From a virus (Duplodnaviria > Heunggongvirae > Uroviricota > Caudoviricetes), in the IMG/VR virus record IMGVR_UViG_2778261593_000007, positions 1 through 6,822 of that record: 6,822 bases of DNA, one strand, 5' to 3'. Of the stretch, positions 1-6,822 are shown in pieces. Numbering within the stretch: the stretch's first letter is position 1; the number at the start of each line of letters is the position of its first letter. The notes below the pieces were generated by a model. The model saw nothing but the letters and a program-made list of their open reading frames with translations. It made no database searches and had not been told where the DNA came from. A program made the translations under genes and the position numbers.

Positions 1-753
1 CTGAACCACATTATCTGGGCGAAGCCGTCCGGACGCTGGAACGGATGCAACAAGGAAAGCCTGCGGGCGTATTTCCCGGCAACAGAACGCATTCTGTTTG
101 CGGAACATTATCAGGGGCCATACCAGCCCAAAAATGACGGCTATGCGGCAAAGGGGCGCGAGCTAAAACAGCACGTCATGGCCCCGCTGATTTCTTACTT
201 TCGTGATGCGCGTGAATCACTGGGGGTAACATCGAAACAGATAGCGGAAGCCACCGGAAAGAAAAACATGGCGTCACATTGGTTTGGTACCAGTCAGTGG
301 CAGTTGCCGAACGAGGGTGATTACAGAAAACTGCAGGTGTTATTTGCACGTGTAGCGGCAGAAAAGCATCAGCGCGGAGAACTGGAAAAACCACATCACC
401 AGCTGGTCAGCGCATACAGTGAACTGAACCGGCAATATGCCAGTCTGCTGGATGAATACAAATCACTGCGGCGTTATTTTTCCGTATCAGCTGCAGTGCC
501 GTATACGGATGTCTGGACGCACAAGCCCGTGCAGTATTATCCGGGCAAACATCCCTGCGAAAAACCGGCGGATATGTTGCGGCAGATAATAGAGGCCAGC
601 AGTCACCCTGGTGATTTGGTTGCGGATTTCTTTATGGGATCCGGGTCAACAATAAAAGCGGCGATGGCGCTGGGGCGTCGGGTAATCGGCGTTGAGCTTG
701 AAACTGAACGGTTTGAACAGACAGTCGGTGAAATTTCGGCAATGTGCAATTAA
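1..753 (+). CDS. DNA methyltransferase, beta-class N6-adenine/N4-cytosine (N6_N4_Mtase-like); 5' partial, open to window start
   Basis: Frame 1 is open from nt 1 to TAA 751-753, so the first ATG at 178 is internal. C-terminal part has HPCEKPADMLRQII followed by the SAM-binding motif DFFMGSGST, the order seen in beta-class amino-methyltransferases. The catalytic (D/N)PPY motif would lie upstream, outside the window. Confidence 0.8.
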   Translation: MNHIIWAKPSGRWNGCNKESLRAYFPATERILFAEHYQGPYQPKNDGYAAKGRELKQHVMAPLISYFRDARESLGVTSKQIAEATGKKNMASHWFGTSQWQLPNEGDYRKLQVLFARVAAEKHQRGELEKPHHQLVSAYSELNRQYASLLDEYKSLRRYFSVSAAVPYTDVWTHKPVQYYPGKHPCEKPADMLRQIIEASSHPGDLVADFFMGSGSTIKAAMALGRRVIGVELETERFEQTVGEISAMCN

Positions 754-780
754 ACCCGCCTCCATGCGGGTTGTGGTTTT
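753..780. terminator. Putative bidirectional intrinsic terminator between convergent genes
   Basis: Hairpin AACCCGC(753-759)/GCGGGTT(766-772) with loop CTCCAT, followed by GTGGTTTT (T-tract 777-780) on the + strand. It sits immediately after the methyltransferase stop and overlaps the stop of the minus-strand gene ending at 779. Confidence 0.45.
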
Positions 781-1093
781 ATGGGGTTTCAAAACTTGAT
801 TTTGATTGTTTTGAATCTAGGCGGCATGGTAATGAGATGATGCCTCGCCACCCAGGGTATGCTTTCTTAAAATCAGAAATTGCTTGCGGTTTTATTTTCC
901 CTTGCTGGATTTTTTGAAAGTCATCGAAATACAACCCGTATTTTCCACATTTCGGACAGTGAACCCTGACACCATCGGTCATGCCAAAAACACCATCGTT
1001 GTATTCAGTATCAAATTTTAAATTTGTCAGGTCTCTGAAACGCCCGCGCTCCACTTTGGCGTGAGCGTAACATGCTGGACATTGCTGATTCAT
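779..1093 (-). CDS. Hypothetical zinc-ribbon protein (104 aa), moron-like
   Basis: ORF with ATG at 1093-1091 and a GAGG Shine-Dalgarno 7 nt upstream (revcomp of 1101-1104). Two Cys pairs, CPAC near the N-terminus and HCPKCG about 40 residues later, suggest a zinc ribbon. Hand-counted GC is about 40% versus 55-60% in neighbours, and orientation is opposite to the late operon. Confidence 0.6.
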   Translation of the reverse strand: MNQQCPACYAHAKVERGRFRDLTNLKFDTEYNDGVFGMTDGVRVHCPKCGKYGLYFDDFQKIQQGKIKPQAISDFKKAYPGWRGIISLPCRLDSKQSKSSFETP

Positions 1094-1338
1094 CTGAAAA
1101 CCTCTATGAAGAATCGTTACTAATCATTGAAAGCGTCCGGACTTATGACGCCATGTATAACGTAATATTTTTACCAGAAAAAACAACTCGTTAAATCTTT
1201 CATATCCGCGCCGCGCCCGGCGCACATCAAAAAACCACAGAGCCTTTCAGGGGTGAGCTTACGGGATGGTCAGTGTGACTTTCTCTGTGGGCTGGTCACC
1301 CCCGGGCGCAGGCTCACCCACTAAAAGGAAAAGTCACT
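1094..1338. promoter_or_regulatory. Divergent intergenic region with GC-rich hairpin and a long-range inverted repeat in the leader of the downstream gene
   Basis: 245-bp gap between divergently oriented genes. GC hairpin GCGCCG(1208-1213)/CGGCGC(1218-1223). Long-range 8-bp complementary arms GGGTGAGC(1251-1258)/GCTCACCC(1312-1319) lie just upstream of SD AGGA 1326-1329. I could not place convincing sigma70 -35/-10 hexamers by eye. Confidence 0.3.
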
Positions 1339-1764
1339 ATGTTTGGTATTTTCAAAAAGAAAACCCGCAAGGCCATTACTGAAGTGAAGAAGATGGAGAA
1401 CCGCGACGCAGTGGAGGCGACTGTCTGGGGCGCGTATTCCATTGCATTCGCTGACGGTACCTGTGATGCGAAAGAAATCGCGGTACTGGAGAAAACCATT
1501 GCAGCACTCCCTGCCTTTGCGCCGTTCTCCGGTGAGATTGCACAAATGAGTGCAAATATCCGCGCCCGTTATGAAGCGTCGCCGCGCTCTGCCAATGCTG
1601 AAGCCCTTCGTCAGCTGGCTGACGTGGCAGGTACTGATGACGCGGTGAATGTGCTGTGCTTGTGTCTTGATATCGCTGACCAGGATGGCATTGGTCCGGA
1701 TGAAGAAGCACAACTCAAGAAAATTGCTCAGGCACTGCAGTTGCCGCTGGAGCAGTACCTGTGA
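1339..1764 (+). CDS. TerB-like domain protein (tellurite-resistance TerB fold), 141 aa
   Basis: ATG 1339 with SD AAGGA 1325-1329. Two acidic D-G-x(4,5)-E motifs (AFADGTCDAKEIAVLEK and DIADQDGIGPDEEAQLKKIAQAL) and a basic N-terminus (MFGIFKKKTRKA...KKM) resemble TerB family proteins as I recall them. Codon usage matches neighbouring phage genes. Confidence 0.65.
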   Translation: MFGIFKKKTRKAITEVKKMENRDAVEATVWGAYSIAFADGTCDAKEIAVLEKTIAALPAFAPFSGEIAQMSANIRARYEASPRSANAEALRQLADVAGTDDAVNVLCLCLDIADQDGIGPDEEAQLKKIAQALQLPLEQYL

Positions 1765-1913
1765 AAAGTGCGCGCCTTGTGCTGGCTGCCATCCTGCTGT
1801 TTCTGGTAGTGGCGGTGGATTTCACCGGACGACTGATGTCGGTGCTGGCAGATGGTGTGCTGGTGGCGATGGCGCTGGTCGTGCTCCGGCCTTTACTGCG
1901 TAAATCTGAATAA
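1761..1913 (+). CDS. Small membrane protein, 50 aa, two predicted TM helices (GTG start)
   Basis: GTG 1761 overlaps the upstream TGA as GTGA; SD GGAG at 1749-1752 with 8-nt spacer. Translation VKSARLVLAAILLFLVVAVDFTGRLMSVLADGVLVAMALVVLRPLLRKSE is strongly hydrophobic with CTG/GTG/GCG-rich codons. Absent from the ORF track only because it is under 60 aa. It fills an otherwise unexplained 238-nt gap. Confidence 0.4.
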   Translation: MKSARLVLAAILLFLVVAVDFTGRLMSVLADGVLVAMALVVLRPLLRKSE

Positions 1914-1920
1914 CACCACA

Positions 1921-1986
1921 CAAAAGGCATCTGCGGGTGCCTTTGACGGGGTGTTTTTATGGGCCGCTGGTGGCCCTTTTTTATTT
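1921..1986 (+). terminator. Putative rho-independent terminator (tandem hairpins plus T-tract) upstream of the lysis genes
   Basis: Hairpin 1: AAAGGCA(1923-1929)/TGCCTTT(1938-1944). Hairpin 2: GGGCC(1961-1965), loop GCTGGT, GGCCC(1972-1976), followed directly by TTTTTTATTT (1977-1986). Confidence 0.5.
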
Positions 1987-2001
1987 ACAGGAGAAAAAAG
2001 T

Positions 2002-2394
2002 ATGTCTGAACCCTTATCCGGTTCCGGCACGGCTGCGGCGCTCGGCGGGGCGACGGTATTCGGGCTGTTTACCGGAACGGATTTCGGGATTGTGTTTGGT
2101 GCGTTCGCCGGGGCGTTATTTGTGGCAACGATGCCGCAGGCGCTTTCAGCCTGGCGTGTGGCGGCGCATTTTCTGGTGTCGTTCATTATCGGCGTGCTGG
2201 GGGCAGAGGTTCTGGCATCCTGGCTGGTAAAGCATACAGAGTTTGACGGTGCACCTGTCGACGCATTGTGTGCAGTACTGGTGTCTGTATTGTCGGTAAA
2301 AGTGCTGTCCTTTGTGCACAGGCAGGACGTTATATCACTGATGTCCTGTCTGCTCTCCCGCCTGAAGAGTGGTGGAGGCGACAATGTTAAGTAA
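2002..2394 (+). CDS. Putative holin / lysis-cassette membrane protein (130 aa, 3-4 predicted TM segments)
   Basis: ATG 2002 with SD AGGAG 1989-1993 (8-nt spacer). Gly/Ala-rich hydrophobic segments (TAAALGGATVFGLFTG, FGIVFGAFAGALFVATM, AAHFLVSFIIGVLGAEVLASWL). Lies immediately upstream of the endolysin. Function is inferred from position and hydropathy only. Confidence 0.55.
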   Translation: MSEPLSGSGTAAALGGATVFGLFTGTDFGIVFGAFAGALFVATMPQALSAWRVAAHFLVSFIIGVLGAEVLASWLVKHTEFDGAPVDALCAVLVSVLSVKVLSFVHRQDVISLMSCLLSRLKSGGGDNVK

Positions 2395-2659
2395 CCTTCC
2401 CGGATTACTGAATGTGGCGTTATGCACGGTTATCGTGCTGACGCTCTTTTTTTATCGTCGCCGTGATTCCAGACATAAACCGCTGATGTCATGGCTGGCC
2501 TGGCTGCTGATGTTGCTTTATGGCTTTGTTCCACTCAGCTATCTGTGTGGTCGCCCGTTAGAAACAGACTGGTTCCAGGTGTTTTTTAACCTGCTGTTCT
2601 GCGTGCTGGTGATACGCGCACGCGGGAACGTCACAAAAATCTTTCCATTGTTGAGGTGA
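2384..2659 (+). CDS. Putative holin (91 aa from ATG 2384, about 3 TM segments, charged C-terminus)
   Basis: ATG 2384 with SD GGAGG 2374-2378 (5-nt spacer); overlaps the upstream gene by 11 nt. The ORF track extends it to GTG 2369. Hydrophobic segments LLNVALCTVIVLTLFFY, LMSWLAWLLMLLYGFVPLSYL, WFQVFFNLLFCVLVI, then basic tail RARGNVTKIFPLLR. Stop TGA 2657-2659 lies 2 nt before the endolysin ATG. Confidence 0.55.
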   Translation: MLSNLPGLLNVALCTVIVLTLFFYRRRDSRHKPLMSWLAWLLMLLYGFVPLSYLCGRPLETDWFQVFFNLLFCVLVIRARGNVTKIFPLLR

Positions 2660-2661
2660 AT

Positions 2662-3039
2662 ATGTCGGGTAAATTCAGATTTAGTCGTCGCAGCGAAAAG
2701 AATCTGGAGGGCGTTAAACCACAGCTGGTTGCTGTCGTTCGCCGTGCGCTGGAGCTGACGGAGGTTGATTTCGGTATTACGGAAGGGCTGCGCACGAAAG
2801 AACGCCAGAAACAGCTGGTCGCGGAAGGGAAAAGCCAGACCATGAACAGCCGCCACCTGACCGGTGATGCGGTGGATGTTGTTGCCTGGGTTGGCAGCCA
2901 GGTGTCATGGGACTGGCCTCTGTACGAGAAAATCGCGCAGGCATTTAAGCAGGCTGCCGCAGAGCTGGGAACTGCCATCGAATGGGGCGGGGACTGGAAA
3001 ACACTGAAAGACGGGCCTCACTTTCAGTTGAAACGCTGA
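2662..3039 (+). CDS. Endolysin, peptidase M15 family (L-alanyl-D-glutamate endopeptidase, phage T5 Lys-like)
   Basis: ATG 2662 with SD GAGGTG 2653-2658. N-terminal block SEKNLEGVKPQLVAVVRRALELTEVDFGITEGLRT closely parallels T5 endolysin as recalled. Zinc-ligand motifs SRHLTGDAVD and DGPHFQL are typical of M15/VanY peptidases. GTG 2656 is an alternative start. Confidence 0.85.
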   Translation: MSGKFRFSRRSEKNLEGVKPQLVAVVRRALELTEVDFGITEGLRTKERQKQLVAEGKSQTMNSRHLTGDAVDVVAWVGSQVSWDWPLYEKIAQAFKQAAAELGTAIEWGGDWKTLKDGPHFQLKR

Positions 3040-3053
3040 TAACCAGGTGTGTT

Positions 3054-3236
3054 ATGAGCAGAAAACACTGGACACACAGAATGCCGCGAACGGCGGCGAA
3101 ATGGGCACTGGTAGTGATACTGGTGCCTTTTTTATTGGTGGGATGCGTTAGCCTGGATAAGGCGCGCCAGCTTTTCGATACGGCTTCTCAGGTCTGTGAA
3201 ATTGTCGACGGTGTTCGGCAGTGTCTGCAGAACTGA
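3054..3236 (+). CDS. Small lipoprotein (60 aa), possible o-spanin-like or lysis-associated lipoprotein
   Basis: ATG 3054 with SD AGGTG 3045-3049. Basic N-region, hydrophobic core and lipobox LLVG-C (AAKWALVVILVPFLLVGC). The roughly 29-aa mature part has two Cys. No N-terminal-TM coiled-coil i-spanin partner is detectable. Confidence 0.55.
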   Translation: MSRKHWTHRMPRTAAKWALVVILVPFLLVGCVSLDKARQLFDTASQVCEIVDGVRQCLQN

Positions 3237-3275
3237 TCGCTGACACTCCGCATCTATATTTAAGAGGGTAGATTA

Positions 3276-3404
3276 ATGGAGAAGAAAAATAATCTAAATA
3301 AAAAAGCTGCTGCATCAGCAAATGTAGCAGTTGGCACTCGACTTAATTCAGAATGCTTCGAGAAGATAAATTCTGAATTGTTGGCGCTGTTTGATAAGAC
3401 GTGA
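3276..3404 (+). CDS. Hypothetical small protein (42 aa), AT-rich
   Basis: ATG 3276 with SD GAGG 3264-3267 (8-nt spacer), stop TGA 3402-3404. Translation MEKKNNLNKKAAASANVAVGTRLNSECFEKINSELLALFDKT. A/T-ending codons contrast with the flanking phage genes. Not in the ORF track because it is under 60 aa. Confidence 0.3.
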   Translation: MEKKNNLNKKAAASANVAVGTRLNSECFEKINSELLALFDKT

Positions 3405-3483
3405 AATTGCCGGAAGGCGCAGTCGTTACTGAGTAACAGGCATTACAGCAGCCCTTCACACAGCGATGGGCTGCGATAATGCT

Positions 3484-3684
3484 TTAGTTGTCTTTCATAA
3501 ATCCTTTAATGGCCCATCCCACAAGCCTGATGATGCTGTATACCAACAAGGCAGATATCAGGGAAACAAGGATATCAAACAGTGAAAACCCCCGGGTCTC
3601 TGTTGATAAAAGGCCGAAAATGAACACCAGAATAGCTAACAGAATTCCTACCCGGTGAAAGCCTTTAGAAATCGTGTTTTTCAT
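3484..3684 (-). CDS. Small membrane protein (66 aa, two predicted TM helices), moron-like
   Basis: ATG at 3684-3682 with a strong SD GGAGG (revcomp of 3688-3692). Hydrophobic helices GILLAILVFIFGLL and ILVSLISALLVYSIIRLVGWAI. Hand-counted GC about 41%. Opposite orientation to the late operon, in the position lambda uses for bor. Confidence 0.6.
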   Translation of the reverse strand: MKNTISKGFHRVGILLAILVFIFGLLSTETRGFSLFDILVSLISALLVYSIIRLVGWAIKGFMKDN

Positions 3685-3744
3685 TTGTCCTCCGTATTGT
3701 TTTTTTAAAGGGTGGGAATTTTAACATCAGATGAGTGAAGTTCT
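3685..3744. promoter_or_regulatory. Divergent intergenic region, probable promoters for the minus-strand membrane protein gene and the HNH/packaging genes
   Basis: 60-bp AT-rich spacer with a T7 tract (3698-3704). Weak candidate + strand hexamers TTGTTT (3697-3702) and TAACAT (3721-3726) at 18-bp spacing. Not strong. Confidence 0.25.
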
Positions 3745-4095
3745 ATGCCGTCACGAATCCCCCGCGCATGCCGTAAGCGAGGCTGCGCAGGCACAACAAC
3801 AGACAGCTCTGGCTACTGCGATAAACATCGGGGTGAAGGCTGGGTGCAGCACCAGCGCGGACTGAGCCGCCACCAGCGTGGCTATGGCTCAAAATGGACG
3901 GTGATTCGCGCCCGTATACTGAAGCGCGATAAAGGTCTGTGTCAGTTGTGTCTGCGTGTTGGTGTGGTGAGCGAGGCGAAAACTGTCGACCACATCATCC
4001 CGAAAGCGCATGGCGGAACAGACGCAGACAGCAACCTGCAGAGTCTGTGCTGGCCCTGCCATAAAGCGAAAACAGCGCGCGAACGAATCAGGTGA
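3745..4095 (+). CDS. HNH endonuclease, phage packaging-associated (HK97 gp74-like)
   Basis: N-terminal Cys cluster (CRKRGC...YCDKH) and C-terminal HNH motif DHIIPKAHGGTDADSNLQSLCWPCHKAKT. Located immediately upstream of the terminase small subunit, as in HK97-like phages. Confidence 0.85.
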   Translation: MPSRIPRACRKRGCAGTTTDSSGYCDKHRGEGWVQHQRGLSRHQRGYGSKWTVIRARILKRDKGLCQLCLRVGVVSEAKTVDHIIPKAHGGTDADSNLQSLCWPCHKAKTARERIR

Positions 4096-4210
4096 TAATT
4101 ATTCTCACTTGTGGGGAGGGGCGGGTCAAATCCCTGCAACCCTGGCTGTCCGGGACCGCCCGCCCCGTCAAATTTTTACACCCGCGAAATTAAAAATTTC
4201 AGGATTTGAC
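4096..4210. other. Candidate cos / terminase recognition region between HNH and terminase small subunit genes
   Basis: GC-rich inverted repeat GGGGCGGG(4118-4125)/CCCGCCCC(4159-4166), then a perfect 9-bp AT-rich inverted repeat AAATTTTTA(4170-4178)/TAAAAATTT(4191-4199) just before the terminase small subunit SD and ATG 4211. By analogy with HK97, cos lies between the HNH gene and gene 1. Confidence 0.4.
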
Positions 4211-4681
4211 ATGTCAGGAAAATCTGTTGCGCCCGGAAGAGGGAGAAAGCCGAAGCCGACCACCCGTAAGGAGCTGGCAGGCAATCCCGGCAAGCGGGCA
4301 TTAAATAAGTTTGAGCCAAAATTCACGCCGATCACCCATGCTGACCCTCCCGAGTGGTTTGATGAAACCGCTCGCCATATGTGGGATACCATTATTCGTG
4401 AGCTCTGTGCCCAGCGAGTTCTTTATGTTACTGATTTGCATAATGTCGTTGCATTCTGCACTGCTTTTCGCAACTGGCATGAGTCGCAGCAGGAGGTTAT
4501 GCGCGTTGGGATTACGGTAGAGAGTGAGGCGGGGCCAAAGAAAAACCCGGCACTCACGGCGGCAAATGAGGCCGCCAGACAAATGGTGACATTCGGTAGT
4601 TTATTAGGGCTCGATCCTGCCAGTCGGCAGCGGCTTATGACGCCGAAGCAGGGGAGCGATAATCCATTTAAAAACCTATGA
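4211..4681 (+). CDS. Terminase small subunit (P27/HK97 gp1-like family), 156 aa
   Basis: ATG 4211 with SD AGGA 4201-4204. Basic N-terminus with the GNPGKR motif ([24 protein letters not shown]). Stop overlaps the large subunit start as ATGA. The track ORF 4010-4681 is an in-frame read-through of the intergenic region. Confidence 0.8.
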
Positions 4682-6408
4682 CACGAAAAAATTACGTGAA
4701 CGTTAACGCCGCAAATCAGTATGCACGTGACGTGGTTCGCGGAAAAATTCAGGTTTGCCGTTATGTCGTTCTGGCCTGCCAGCGTCACCTTGATGACCTG
4801 GAAAACTCAGCTAAAAAAAACTATCCGTTTAAATTTGATAAGGATAAAGCTGAGCGTGTGGCGAAATTTATCCAGCTTTTGCCACACACCAAAGGGGAGT
4901 GGGCATTTAAACGGATGCCCATTACGCTTGAACCCTGGCAGTTGTTCTGTATTTGTGTTGTGTTTGGGTGGGTGAGAAAAAAGAGCGGCCTGCGTCGATT
5001 TCGCGAGGCTTACAACGAAATACCCCGTAAAAACGGGAAATCAGCAATGTCTGCTGGCGTTGGTCTGTATATGTTTGCCTGCGATGATGAATTTGGCGCT
5101 GAAGTGTATTCCGGGGCCACAACAGAGAAACAGGCGTGGGAAGTTTTTCGTCCAGCCAGACTGATGGCGCAACGCACGGAACCATTGCGTGAAGCATTTG
5201 GTATTGAAGTACATGCTCAAAGCATGAGCCGTCCGGAGGACGGTGCCCGTTTTGAACCGTTGATTGGAGATCCCGGAGACGGCGCGTCGCCGAGTTGCGC
5301 CCTCATTGATGAATATCACGAGCATCAGACCGATGCGCTTTACCAGACGATGCAAACTGGGATGGGGGCACGTCGTCAGCCGCTGATTTTTGGTATCACC
5401 ACTGCGGGCTATAACATTGAAGGACCATGCTACGACAAACGTCGTGAAGTGATCGAAATGCTTGAAGGGATTGTGCCCAATGATGAACTGTTCGGGATTA
5501 TTTATACCATTGACGACGGGGATGACTGGACAGATCCGGCGGTATTGCGTAAAGCGAACCCCAATATGGGGATTTCTGTCTACAGCGATTACCTGTTATC
5601 TCAACAGCGCGCGGCAATTAACAACCCACGAAAAGTGGGCGTATTCAAAACGAAACATCTGAATATCTGGGTGGCAGCAAAAGACGCCTTCTTCAATCTT
5701 GTGAACTGGCAGAAATGTGAAGACAGGAGTCTGACGCTGGAGCGTTTTGAGGGGCATACCTGCATCCTGGCGTTTGACCTTGCGCGAAAGCTGGATTTGA
5801 ACGCGATGGTACGGCTTTTTACCCGAGAGATTGACGGTAAAACGCATTATTATTGTGTCGCACCCAAGTTTTTTGTTCCCTACGACACAATCTACAGCGC
5901 TGATGTGACAGACAGTCGCACAGCAGAACGTTATCAGAAGTGGGTTGAAGGGGGATTTATTACCGTTACCGATGGCGCGGAAATTGATTACCGGGAGATC
6001 CTTGAGTCTGCGAAAGAAGCAAATCGCTTAAACGCAGTGGAGGAGTCACCTATAGATCCCCACGGAGCCACAAACCTTTCTCACCACCTTGCTGATGAAA
6101 ACTTAAACCCTATTACCATCATTCAGAACTACACCAATATGTCGGATCCCATGAAGGAACTTGAGGCGGCTATTGAGGCCGGGCGTTTTCATCATGATGG
6201 TAATCCTGTGATGACATGGTGTATCAGCAACGTGATTGGAAAGCACATTCCCGGCGACGATGATGTTGTTCGTCCGATCAAACAAGGCAACGAAAACAAA
6301 ATCGATGGTGCTGTGGCGCTGATTATGGCGATTGGTCGTTGCATGCTATTTGAGAAAGAAGACACGCTGTCTGACCACATTGAGTCCTACGGGATCCGTT
6401 CGCTTTAA
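4678..6408 (+). CDS. Terminase large subunit (Terminase_1 / HK97-like), 576 aa
   Basis: Walker A-like PRKNGKS, Walker B-like ALIDEYHEH, and a C-terminal nuclease-like region with conserved acidic residues (DGAVALIMA). Start is translationally coupled to the small subunit (ATGA at 4678-4681). Confidence 0.9.
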
Positions 6409-6419
6409 CTGAGGTAATT

Positions 6420-6602
6420 ATGATCATGCTGATTCTCGCGCCTCTGGTGGGCGTGCTGGGTGTGCTTTTGCTGGCGTATGGTGCCTGGCTGATTTATCCC
6501 CCGGCTGGTTTTGTTGTTGCCGGGGCGCTGTGCCTGTTCTGGTCGTGGCTGGTGGCACGATATCTCGACCGTACACGGCAGTCTGTCGGCGGAGGTAAAT
6601 AG
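6420..6602 (+). CDS. Small membrane protein (60 aa, two predicted TM helices) between terminase and portal
   Basis: ATG 6420 with SD GAGG 6411-6414 (5-nt spacer). Translation [60 protein letters not shown]. Host-like GC-rich codons. Stop TAG 6600-6602 overlaps the portal GTG 6602. Confidence 0.5.
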
Positions 6603-6822
6603 TGTTCTTTTCGGGGTTATTTCAACGAAAAAGTGACGCACCAGTGACCACGCCAGCAGAGCTGGCGGAGGCTATCGGGCTGTCATACGACACCTATACC
6701 GGAAAGCGGATCAGCAGCCAGCGGGCCATGCGACTGACGGCGGTCTATTCCTGCGTCAGGGTGCTGGCTGAGTCTGTTGGTATGCTGCCCTGCAGTCTCT
6801 ACAAAATCAGCGGCACCCTTAA
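6602..6822 (+). CDS. Portal protein, HK97 family; 3' partial, runs off window end
   Basis: GTG 6602 with SD GGAGG 6591-6595. Translation [73 protein letters not shown] matches the conserved N-terminal region of HK97-family portals. Missing from the ORF track, presumably because it has no in-window stop. Confidence 0.8.
   Translation, partial: MFFSGLFQRKSDAPVTTPAELAEAIGLSYDTYTGKRISSQRAMRLTAVYSCVRVLAESVGMLPCSLYKISGTL

Follow-up and report, generated by a model that had tools for sequence, protein, structure and literature searches.

In phage lambda, the bor gene lies downstream of the lysis genes, on the opposite strand, and before cos and the terminase genes. Small membrane proteins of about 66–70 amino acids (aa) that have two helices and cytoplasmic N- and C-termini are also familiar, among them the class II holins and GhoT-like toxins. 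The subject here is an island at positions 3237-3744 of a 6,822-nucleotide (nt) stretch of viral DNA (Caudoviricetes; positions 1 to 6,822 of IMG/VR record IMGVR_UViG_2778261593_000007), hereafter called the window, in which an open reading frame (ORF) of 42 aa and a gene for a 66-aa two-helix membrane protein converge. A moron, as defined by Juhala et al. (2000), differs in guanine-plus-cytosine (GC) content from its surroundings, carries its own promoter and terminator, and is expressed from the repressed prophage (PMC3594210). HK97 gp15, a protein related to YebO, is a small inner-membrane exclusion protein for which non-phage homologues are known (PMC3594210).

Comparison of its proteins with Pfam and PHROG, together with the RefSeq annotation of its relatives, identifies the window as the late region of a phiP27-like Escherichia coli prophage. 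Within this region the island is probably (at a rough probability of 0.65) a mosaic moron slot holding two independent modules, one of which would be an autonomous unit for the 66-aa protein. Base composition sets the island apart to begin with. An earlier note on this DNA, made from the letters alone, had described an AT-rich island between the lysis and packaging modules, and the island indeed has a GC content of 41.1%, a value that is equalled or undercut in just 0.5% of all 508-base-pair (bp) segments of the window. The flanking genes range from 52 to 59% (endolysin, 55.7%; lipoprotein, 52.5%; HNH endonuclease, 58.7%), while the 42-aa and 66-aa ORFs stand at 36.4% and 41.3%, respectively. 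This is the kind of compositional difference by which morons are defined. The sole comparably low-GC stretch in the window, at 698-1205, is another cargo slot.

The slot is framed by two conserved genes. On the left is the lipoprotein gene, which is the last conserved gene of the lysis cassette and is found in all related loci; on the right is the HNH gene, the first of a packaging module ordered as HNH, cos, P27-type small terminase, and large terminase. The flanks match phiP27 at 93-98% identity, and within the island only parts do. An alignment with related prophages, which had been suggested as a check, was made pairwise with six relatives and with L044, an IMG/VR contig. All relatives lose homology at 3240/3241, four bases past the lipoprotein stop codon, and further breaks occur at 3401/3402, at the end of a hairpin (3483/3484), and at about 3733. 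E. coli A36 and L044 match the window through 3483, then carry a different 98-aa gene on the + strand, with homology returning at 3733. Since phiP27, A36, and L044 all lack the 66-aa unit, its presence is patchy and its borders, at 3483/3484 and about 3733, are sharp, as would be expected of a moron. The idea of an insertion hotspot at this place thus takes a definite form, that of a low-GC cargo slot at the lysis/packaging junction that is exchanged horizontally. Judged by its sequence, the island is a mosaic of exchangeable cargo, with two independent modules joined at a conserved hairpin.

The extent of this exchange was seen when marker proteins were scored across about 30 related loci, in the slot that separates the lipoprotein gene from the packaging genes. 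Seven configurations were found: an L33-like gene only (phiP27); the L33-like gene with the 66-aa gene; a 57-aa gene with the 66-aa gene; the 66-aa gene as the sole cargo (in Citrobacter and at several E. coli loci); the 42-aa gene with another, unrelated 98-aa gene and without the 66-aa gene (A36 and L044); the 42-aa gene with the 66-aa gene (the window and IMG/VR UViG_2648501669_000015); and the 66-aa gene before a lambda-like terminase, the HNH gene being absent. Wherever it was present among the scored loci, the 66-aa gene was antisense to the late genes and was the last cargo before the HNH or terminase gene. A 43%-identical homologue in a more distant phage, located between Rz/Rz1 and HNH, has the same orientation and place.

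The two modules meet at the hairpin, a 15-bp inverted repeat with a predicted folding energy of -27.3 kcal/mol on the - strand (z = -5.9) and -26.6 kcal/mol on the + strand (z = -5.2). Across 10 variants, 90.7% of the cells are paired and eight pairs have changed on both sides, values that were reached in 0 of 500 shuffles; the two-sided changes come mostly from one distant homologue, L041. The homology of L044 stops at 3483, which makes the hairpin a module boundary as well. It is likely that the structure serves as a 3′ end or insulator for both directions of transcription and, in addition, as a recurrent boundary for recombination. Comparison of the window with two other loci (L006 and L008) also revealed that the hairpin exists in two self-complementary versions, whose inner dinucleotides are TC/GA in one and CA/TG in the other. 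The window, like most of the loci, has a hybrid of the two with one mismatch and one wobble pair, an arrangement that fits recombination within the hairpin. Scans of the window with Rfam (E<=1) and for tRNAs gave no matches.

The 66-aa ORF is certainly a real, conserved membrane-protein gene. Its close family is found in E. coli, E. albertii, Salmonella, and Citrobacter at 61-94% identity, and ratios of nonsynonymous to synonymous substitution rates (dN/dS) of 0.12-0.33 indicate purifying selection. The two-transmembrane protein with a strong GGAGG site that the earlier note had called on the - strand is present as GGAGG-ACAA-ATG followed by the ORF. Hydropathy peaks at residues 19 and 45, and an AlphaFold2 model gives a helical hairpin (H2-28 and H35-64) with a predicted local distance difference test score (pLDDT) of 87.6. 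Positive charges lie towards the two ends (K2, K7, and R11; R53, K60, and K64) and the loop is net acidic; by the positive-inside rule, both termini would be cytoplasmic. The N-terminus reads MKNTISKGFHR, without a signal peptide or lipobox cysteine, and the C-terminal tail consists of KGFMKDN only. Upstream of the gene, five diverged lineages share TAGAAC-N16-TAAAAT and the TG that precedes the second hexamer without any change, in contrast to the leader from the -10 motif to the ribosome-binding site, which is variable. Unlike the leaders of type I toxin mRNAs, that of the 66-aa mRNA is short and has no unusual structure (z = 0.12). An inverted repeat near the start codon was considered as a translational control element and dropped, because shuffled sequences fold as well as the leader does.

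Of the 5426 complete E. coli genomes searched, 13 match at least 80% of the length of the 66-aa unit; the divergent copy, of 71-72% identity, is carried by five complete genomes. In two genomes, those of E. coli Sx181-0-1 and UTAK-18 (L008 and L009, 3049-3255), an intact 68-aa homologue is unannotated in RefSeq, with the promoter motif and hairpin conserved, and for three other genomes with a divergent homologue the search table likewise lists the annotation as none. In E. coli STEC308 (L010, 2437-2685), the prophage is truncated beside hyaA, and the gene has exchanged its final few codons for a new C-terminal tail, so that the product is 82 aa long. This case shows that the unit can persist as the outermost remnant of a decayed prophage.

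Beyond its close family, the protein belongs to a larger group. A profile search of 1.84 billion cluster representatives (50% identity clusters, E<=1e-3) found 132 clusters, in which most members are 65-78 aa long. They share an N-terminal [IL]-S-x-G-F-H-R-x-G, a first helix, a loop that varies and in some members holds a large insert, and a second helix ending in Y...R..GW.I.GF. Four residues, H10, G13, Y49, and W57, are invariant, and all four are present in the window's protein. In the model, the conserved His, Arg, Tyr, Trp, and Gly residues would lie together where the two helices reach the cytoplasm, leaving the periplasmic loop free to vary. Searches of Pfam and NCBIfam with the 66-aa protein and 34 superfamily members returned only sub-threshold matches of the hydrophobic-composition kind, and the 66-aa protein matched no family in the PHROGs or PADLOC. 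A weak NCBIfam match of one member to YmgF (E = 0.0088) was rejected as composition-driven. A profile search of the PDB and Foldseek searches of the PDB and BFVD gave no match at E<=0.001, a helical hairpin being too simple a fold to be informative, and a literature search for the RefSeq accessions and the GFHR motif turned up nothing relevant. On these sequence comparisons, the superfamily (GFHRxG...GW.I.GF) is undescribed and widespread on prophages and plasmids.

Distant members of the superfamily occur on plasmids and in other mobile contexts. One lies near a fimbrial operon with Tn3 and insertion sequence remnants, and another is part of an operon headed by a helix-turn-helix regulator next to a ParA gene. 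No neighbouring gene was conserved across the whole superfamily in the loci examined. Five E. coli plasmid-like contigs (L016-L019 and L021) encode FFHR variants of 67 aa, at 115-127 nt upstream of a FaeA-like regulator gene, and the two may form a conserved gene pair. In four of these (L016-L019), the regulator gene is followed by what looks, from its Pfam domains, to be a shf-capU-virK-like operon.

The 42-aa ORF is also present as it had been called, with AGAGGG at 7 nt upstream of its ATG and a hydrophilic product that has a grand average of hydropathy (GRAVY) of -0.43 and no hydrophobic segments. A generic consensus scan found no promoter-like site on the + strand for this module, and the gene is presumably transcribed with the late operon. 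A 99%-identical module occurs in E. coli A36, and a diverged variant was detected in L044 by a degenerate DNA pattern search. In phiP27 and three enterotoxigenic E. coli (ETEC) genomes, the space between the endolysin and lipoprotein genes is taken by a homologue of 43 aa, which starts with TTG, has a GGAGG site, and differs by an in-frame indel of 3 nt. Among the complete E. coli genomes, one contains the module and three more the phiP27-type version; among 50,697 deposited phage genomes searched by tblastn, phiP27 was the only match. The protein has no Pfam, PHROG, PADLOC, or NCBIfam family, and scans of both small proteins gave sub-threshold matches only. Directly downstream, positions 3402-3482 align to the 3′ end and flank of the L33 gene in phiP27 and in two further loci (L001 and L003). 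The module would seem to have replaced an L33-like gene except for its last 11 codons (3401-3436), and the TGA stop of the 42-aa ORF (3402-3404) belongs to this remnant, read in another frame. Inside the ORF, two near-palindromic AATTCnGAAT(T) units at 3345-3354 and 3370-3379, 25 bp apart, encode the repeated peptide NSE. The units are less perfect in phiP27 and may be a by-product of coding or due to chance.

How the 66-aa unit might operate can be sketched from these elements. Module 2 (3484-3745, - strand) would be an autonomous transcription unit that faces backwards, made up of a putative TG-extended -10 promoter, the GGAGG site, the gene for the inner-membrane protein, and a 3′ hairpin. 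Because the unit has moron-like features and is placed and oriented as bor is, it would be expected to be active in the repressed prophage, presumably constitutively and at a low level, as with lambda bor and HK97 gene 15. After induction, Q-dependent late transcription would oppose the gene by antisense collision. By analogy with HK97 gp15, the product might be an inner-membrane factor that protects the lysogen through superinfection exclusion, a tentative guess at function that is offered at well short of even odds. Rather unlikely, and bolder, is the proposal that the whole superfamily represents a new class of single-gene protective factors of mobile elements, which might block, for example, phage DNA entry or a membrane step of infection; the cytoplasmic motifs would then be the acting part and the periplasmic loop would set specificity.

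Several observations weigh against this picture of an autonomous, protective moron. The promoter and terminator that a moron should carry are represented by a conserved promoter-like motif and a hairpin. A generic consensus scan did not flag the motif, and its -35 hexamer matches the consensus at just 3 of 6 bases. Part of the promoter-like block (3733-3745) also occurs in relatives without the 66-aa gene, and conservation of the -35-like hexamer may reflect the translation-initiation region of the HNH gene. The hairpin, which comes directly after the stop codon of the 66-aa gene, has no U-tract on that strand and is not a canonical intrinsic terminator in that direction; its T-rich tail lies on the + strand. 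Moreover, tblastn of the 66-aa protein against the deposited phage genomes gave no match, and a few superfamily members are fused to unrelated domains (DUF2569 and tRNA_anti-like), which suggests a generic membrane module and not a phage-specific function. Finally, no pointer specific to superinfection exclusion was found; the protein matches neither Imm, YebO/gp15, nor Bor, nor any PADLOC model.

Whether the two ORFs belong together, and whether the smaller one is a gene at all, are related questions. The earlier note had seen in their convergent layout a possible toxin-antitoxin-like or antisense-regulated pair, and it is true that the genes converge, that one product is small and hydrophobic, and that the arrangement recurs in UViG_2648501669_000015 and in draft E. 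coli genomes, where adjacent locus tags carry both ORFs. Because the two assort independently across the scored loci, however, an obligate toxin-antitoxin or antisense pair is ruled out, and the pairing idea as such is very improbable. Both ORFs together were found in 0 of the 5426 complete E. coli genomes, and the homologue of the 42-aa ORF sits elsewhere in the phiP27 lysis cassette. Their stop codons are 79 nt apart, so that the coding regions do not overlap, and the hairpin of -27 kcal/mol lies in between. In addition, Pfam, PADLOC, and Rfam provided no toxin-antitoxin, defence, or RNA-family match, and the 5′ region of the 66-aa mRNA has no unusual structure. As for the 42-aa ORF by itself, it may not be a functional protein gene and may instead be a decaying or non-coding remnant carried in the mosaic junction. 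Between the window and L044 there are 11 substitutions, altering 10 codons, and 10 of 10 altered codons are nonsynonymous, a pattern that fits either neutral drift or fast diversification; the borrowed stop codon, the great rarity of the module, and the lack of any family match point the same way. On the other hand, three diverged lineages have kept the ORF whole (at 42, 42, and 43 aa), with its ribosome-binding site and start position conserved and its indel in frame, and it was annotated by NCBI in A36. Relative to phiP27, its substitutions are distributed 15/5/14 over codon positions 1/2/3, so that second positions are spared, and dN/dS is about 0.5. The evidence is mixed, and the ORF is a probable, not a secure, protein-coding gene; that it is a mere remnant is less likely.

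Other functions for the 66-aa protein have to be set beside the protective one. The nearest rival, and the next most likely, is that it modulates a sensor, transporter, or envelope machine of the host inner membrane in the manner of MgrB, SafA, or AcrZ, and does not act on incoming phages. Such a role is possible, no firmer than a guess, and would suit both the conserved residues at the cytoplasmic membrane interface with their variable periplasmic loop and the distant relatives on virulence plasmids, some beside FaeA-like regulator genes and others near fimbrial operons. A review of morons also reports stress roles for many small, envelope-localised proteins (PMC3594210). Yet the likeness to MgrB, SafA, and AcrZ is one of size only, and no neighbouring gene is conserved superfamily-wide in the loci examined. 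A membrane-damaging protein, be it a type I toxin, an abortive-infection effector, or a class II holin/antiholin-like regulator of lysis, is improbable. The 66-aa protein does come close to class II holins and GhoT-like toxins in size and predicted topology, its gene keeps its link with the holin/endolysin/lipoprotein cassette even in prophages that have another terminase module, and one variant starts with MKNM, a dual-start-like motif. Toxin or holin-like roles are nevertheless made less likely by the orientation of the gene, which is outside and antisense to the late operon with a promoter-like motif that needs no phage activator, by the missing charged C-terminal tail of holins, and by relatives whose domain fusions and large periplasmic inserts are ill-suited to a minimal toxin. 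Nor was any holin or toxin family matched, although the adjacent holin genes match strongly; the cassette already holds two holin-family genes, and the mRNA has no long structured leader (z = 0.12). A lysogen-protective factor stays the preferred guess at function, with the tentativeness stated above.

The coordinates of these features and of the surrounding late genes are collected in Table 1.

Table 1. Genes and other elements of the window, in order of position.
Feature	Position	Strand	Remarks
DNA methylase gene	ends at 753		
ORF of 104 aa	779-1093	-	
TerB-family gene	1339-1764		
DUF3927 gene	1761-1913		
Two holin-family genes	2002-2394 and 2384-2659		strong matches to holin families (Pfam, PHROG)
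M15 endolysin gene	2662-3039		
Gene for 60-aa lipoprotein	3054-3236	+	lipobox LVGC; phrog_7528 at 4.9e-38
Island under study	3237-3744		
42-aa module	3241-3401	+	36% GC; late-gene strand; ribosome-binding site AGAGGG at 3263-3268; ORF at 3276-3404
Remnant of phiP27 L33-like 98-aa gene (3′ end)	3401-3436	+	last codons ...KLPEGAVVTE and stop
15-bp inverted repeat (hairpin)	3440-3482	either	between the convergent genes
Gene for 66-aa protein with two transmembrane helices	3484-3684	-	
Upstream region of 66-aa gene	3685-3745	-	
GGAGG ribosome-binding site of 66-aa gene	3689-3693	-	
TG-extended -10 motif (putative), TGTTAAAAT	3718-3726	-	
-35-like TAGAAC	3740-3745	-	16-nt spacer; abuts and overlaps HNH start codon
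HNH endonuclease gene	3745-4095	+	Pfam HNH at 1.7e-16
P27-type small terminase gene	4211-4681		
Large terminase gene	4678-6408		

Other parts of the window deserve mention in their own right. The 60-aa lipoprotein gene (3054-3236) occupies the place where Rz/Rz1 spanin genes would be expected, and phrog_7528 is a family of unknown function. Neither a partner inner-membrane spanin, through which the outer membrane might be disrupted, nor a C-terminal transmembrane helix in the lipoprotein was seen. RefSeq records choose different starts for the gene, giving either 60 or 51 aa. A tandem pair of GC-rich hairpins, each followed by a T-run, lies at 1915-1990, after the DUF3927 gene and ahead of the first holin gene. 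They look like intrinsic terminators in the late transcript, and passage through them would need Q antitermination. A further small membrane ORF, of 60 aa with two helices, occurs at 6420-6602 (+ strand) between the large terminase and portal genes, and in related prophages (L026-L028) a 60-aa gene has been called at the equivalent place.

The window also has a second low-GC patch, the lowest in it, at 754-1338 between the methylase and TerB genes. The ORF on its - strand (779-1093) would encode a Cys-rich, zinc-ribbon-like protein of 104 aa. In phiP27 the same slot holds tRNAs, the stx2e A and B genes, and L27, and the full patch of the window is present in only 3 of the 5426 complete E. coli genomes.

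The description that suits the island best is that of a moron slot, ordinary in kind though clearly delimited, which the earlier note had placed correctly; the family of its 66-aa protein is undescribed. The slot is a second recombination hotspot in phiP27-like, Shiga toxin (Stx)-related prophages, besides the stx slot that is also visible in the window. Its borders can now be given to the base, and the hairpin is identified as a recurrent module junction. A conserved family of small membrane proteins has been partly missed by current annotation. If this family does prove to be a protective or host-modulating factor expressed in the lysogen, it would offer a compact, easily tested single-gene function; otherwise the region would be an ordinary moron slot.

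Among described systems, lambda bor is the closest in placement, and the analogy of position that had been drawn with it holds for the 66-aa gene in orientation too. Both genes follow directly after the lysis genes, run opposite to the late operon, and precede cos and the terminase, and each is a low-GC addition that some related phages have and others lack. The products differ, Bor being an outer-membrane lipoprotein and the 66-aa protein a predicted two-helix inner-membrane hairpin with no lipobox or signal peptide. In agreement with the remark that neither small protein resembles Bor, no match to Bor or to any other Pfam family was found (E<=1 for the 66-aa protein).

The class II holins and small two-helix toxins, such as S21 and GhoT, share with the 66-aa protein its size, its predicted two-helix topology, and termini that are both cytoplasmic. 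They differ from it in sequence, there being no family match and the GFHRxG and R..GW.I.GF motifs being unlike theirs, and the 66-aa gene is separate from and antisense to the lysis operon, its product having no charged C-terminal tail. HK97 gene 15, the model for the functional guess, also encodes a small inner-membrane protein, from an autonomous unit in the late region and with homologues outside prophages. It belongs to the tail operon, in contrast to the lysis/packaging junction occupied here, and the sequences are unrelated; the Pfam families of T4 Imm and of HK97 gp15/YebO were absent from the matches of the 66-aa protein and 34 superfamily members.

The closest relative of the region as a whole is the phiP27 late region (L31-L34), with the same backbone of holins, M15 endolysin, 60-aa lipoprotein, HNH, cos, and P27-type terminase at 93-98% identity. 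The 42-aa ORF is homologous to the C-terminal part of phiP27 L31, and L33, intact in phiP27, is the type of gene from which the 3′ remnant and hairpin of the window derive. It is in their cargo that the two differ, for phiP27 has no 66-aa gene and carries its 42-aa homologue upstream of the lipoprotein gene.

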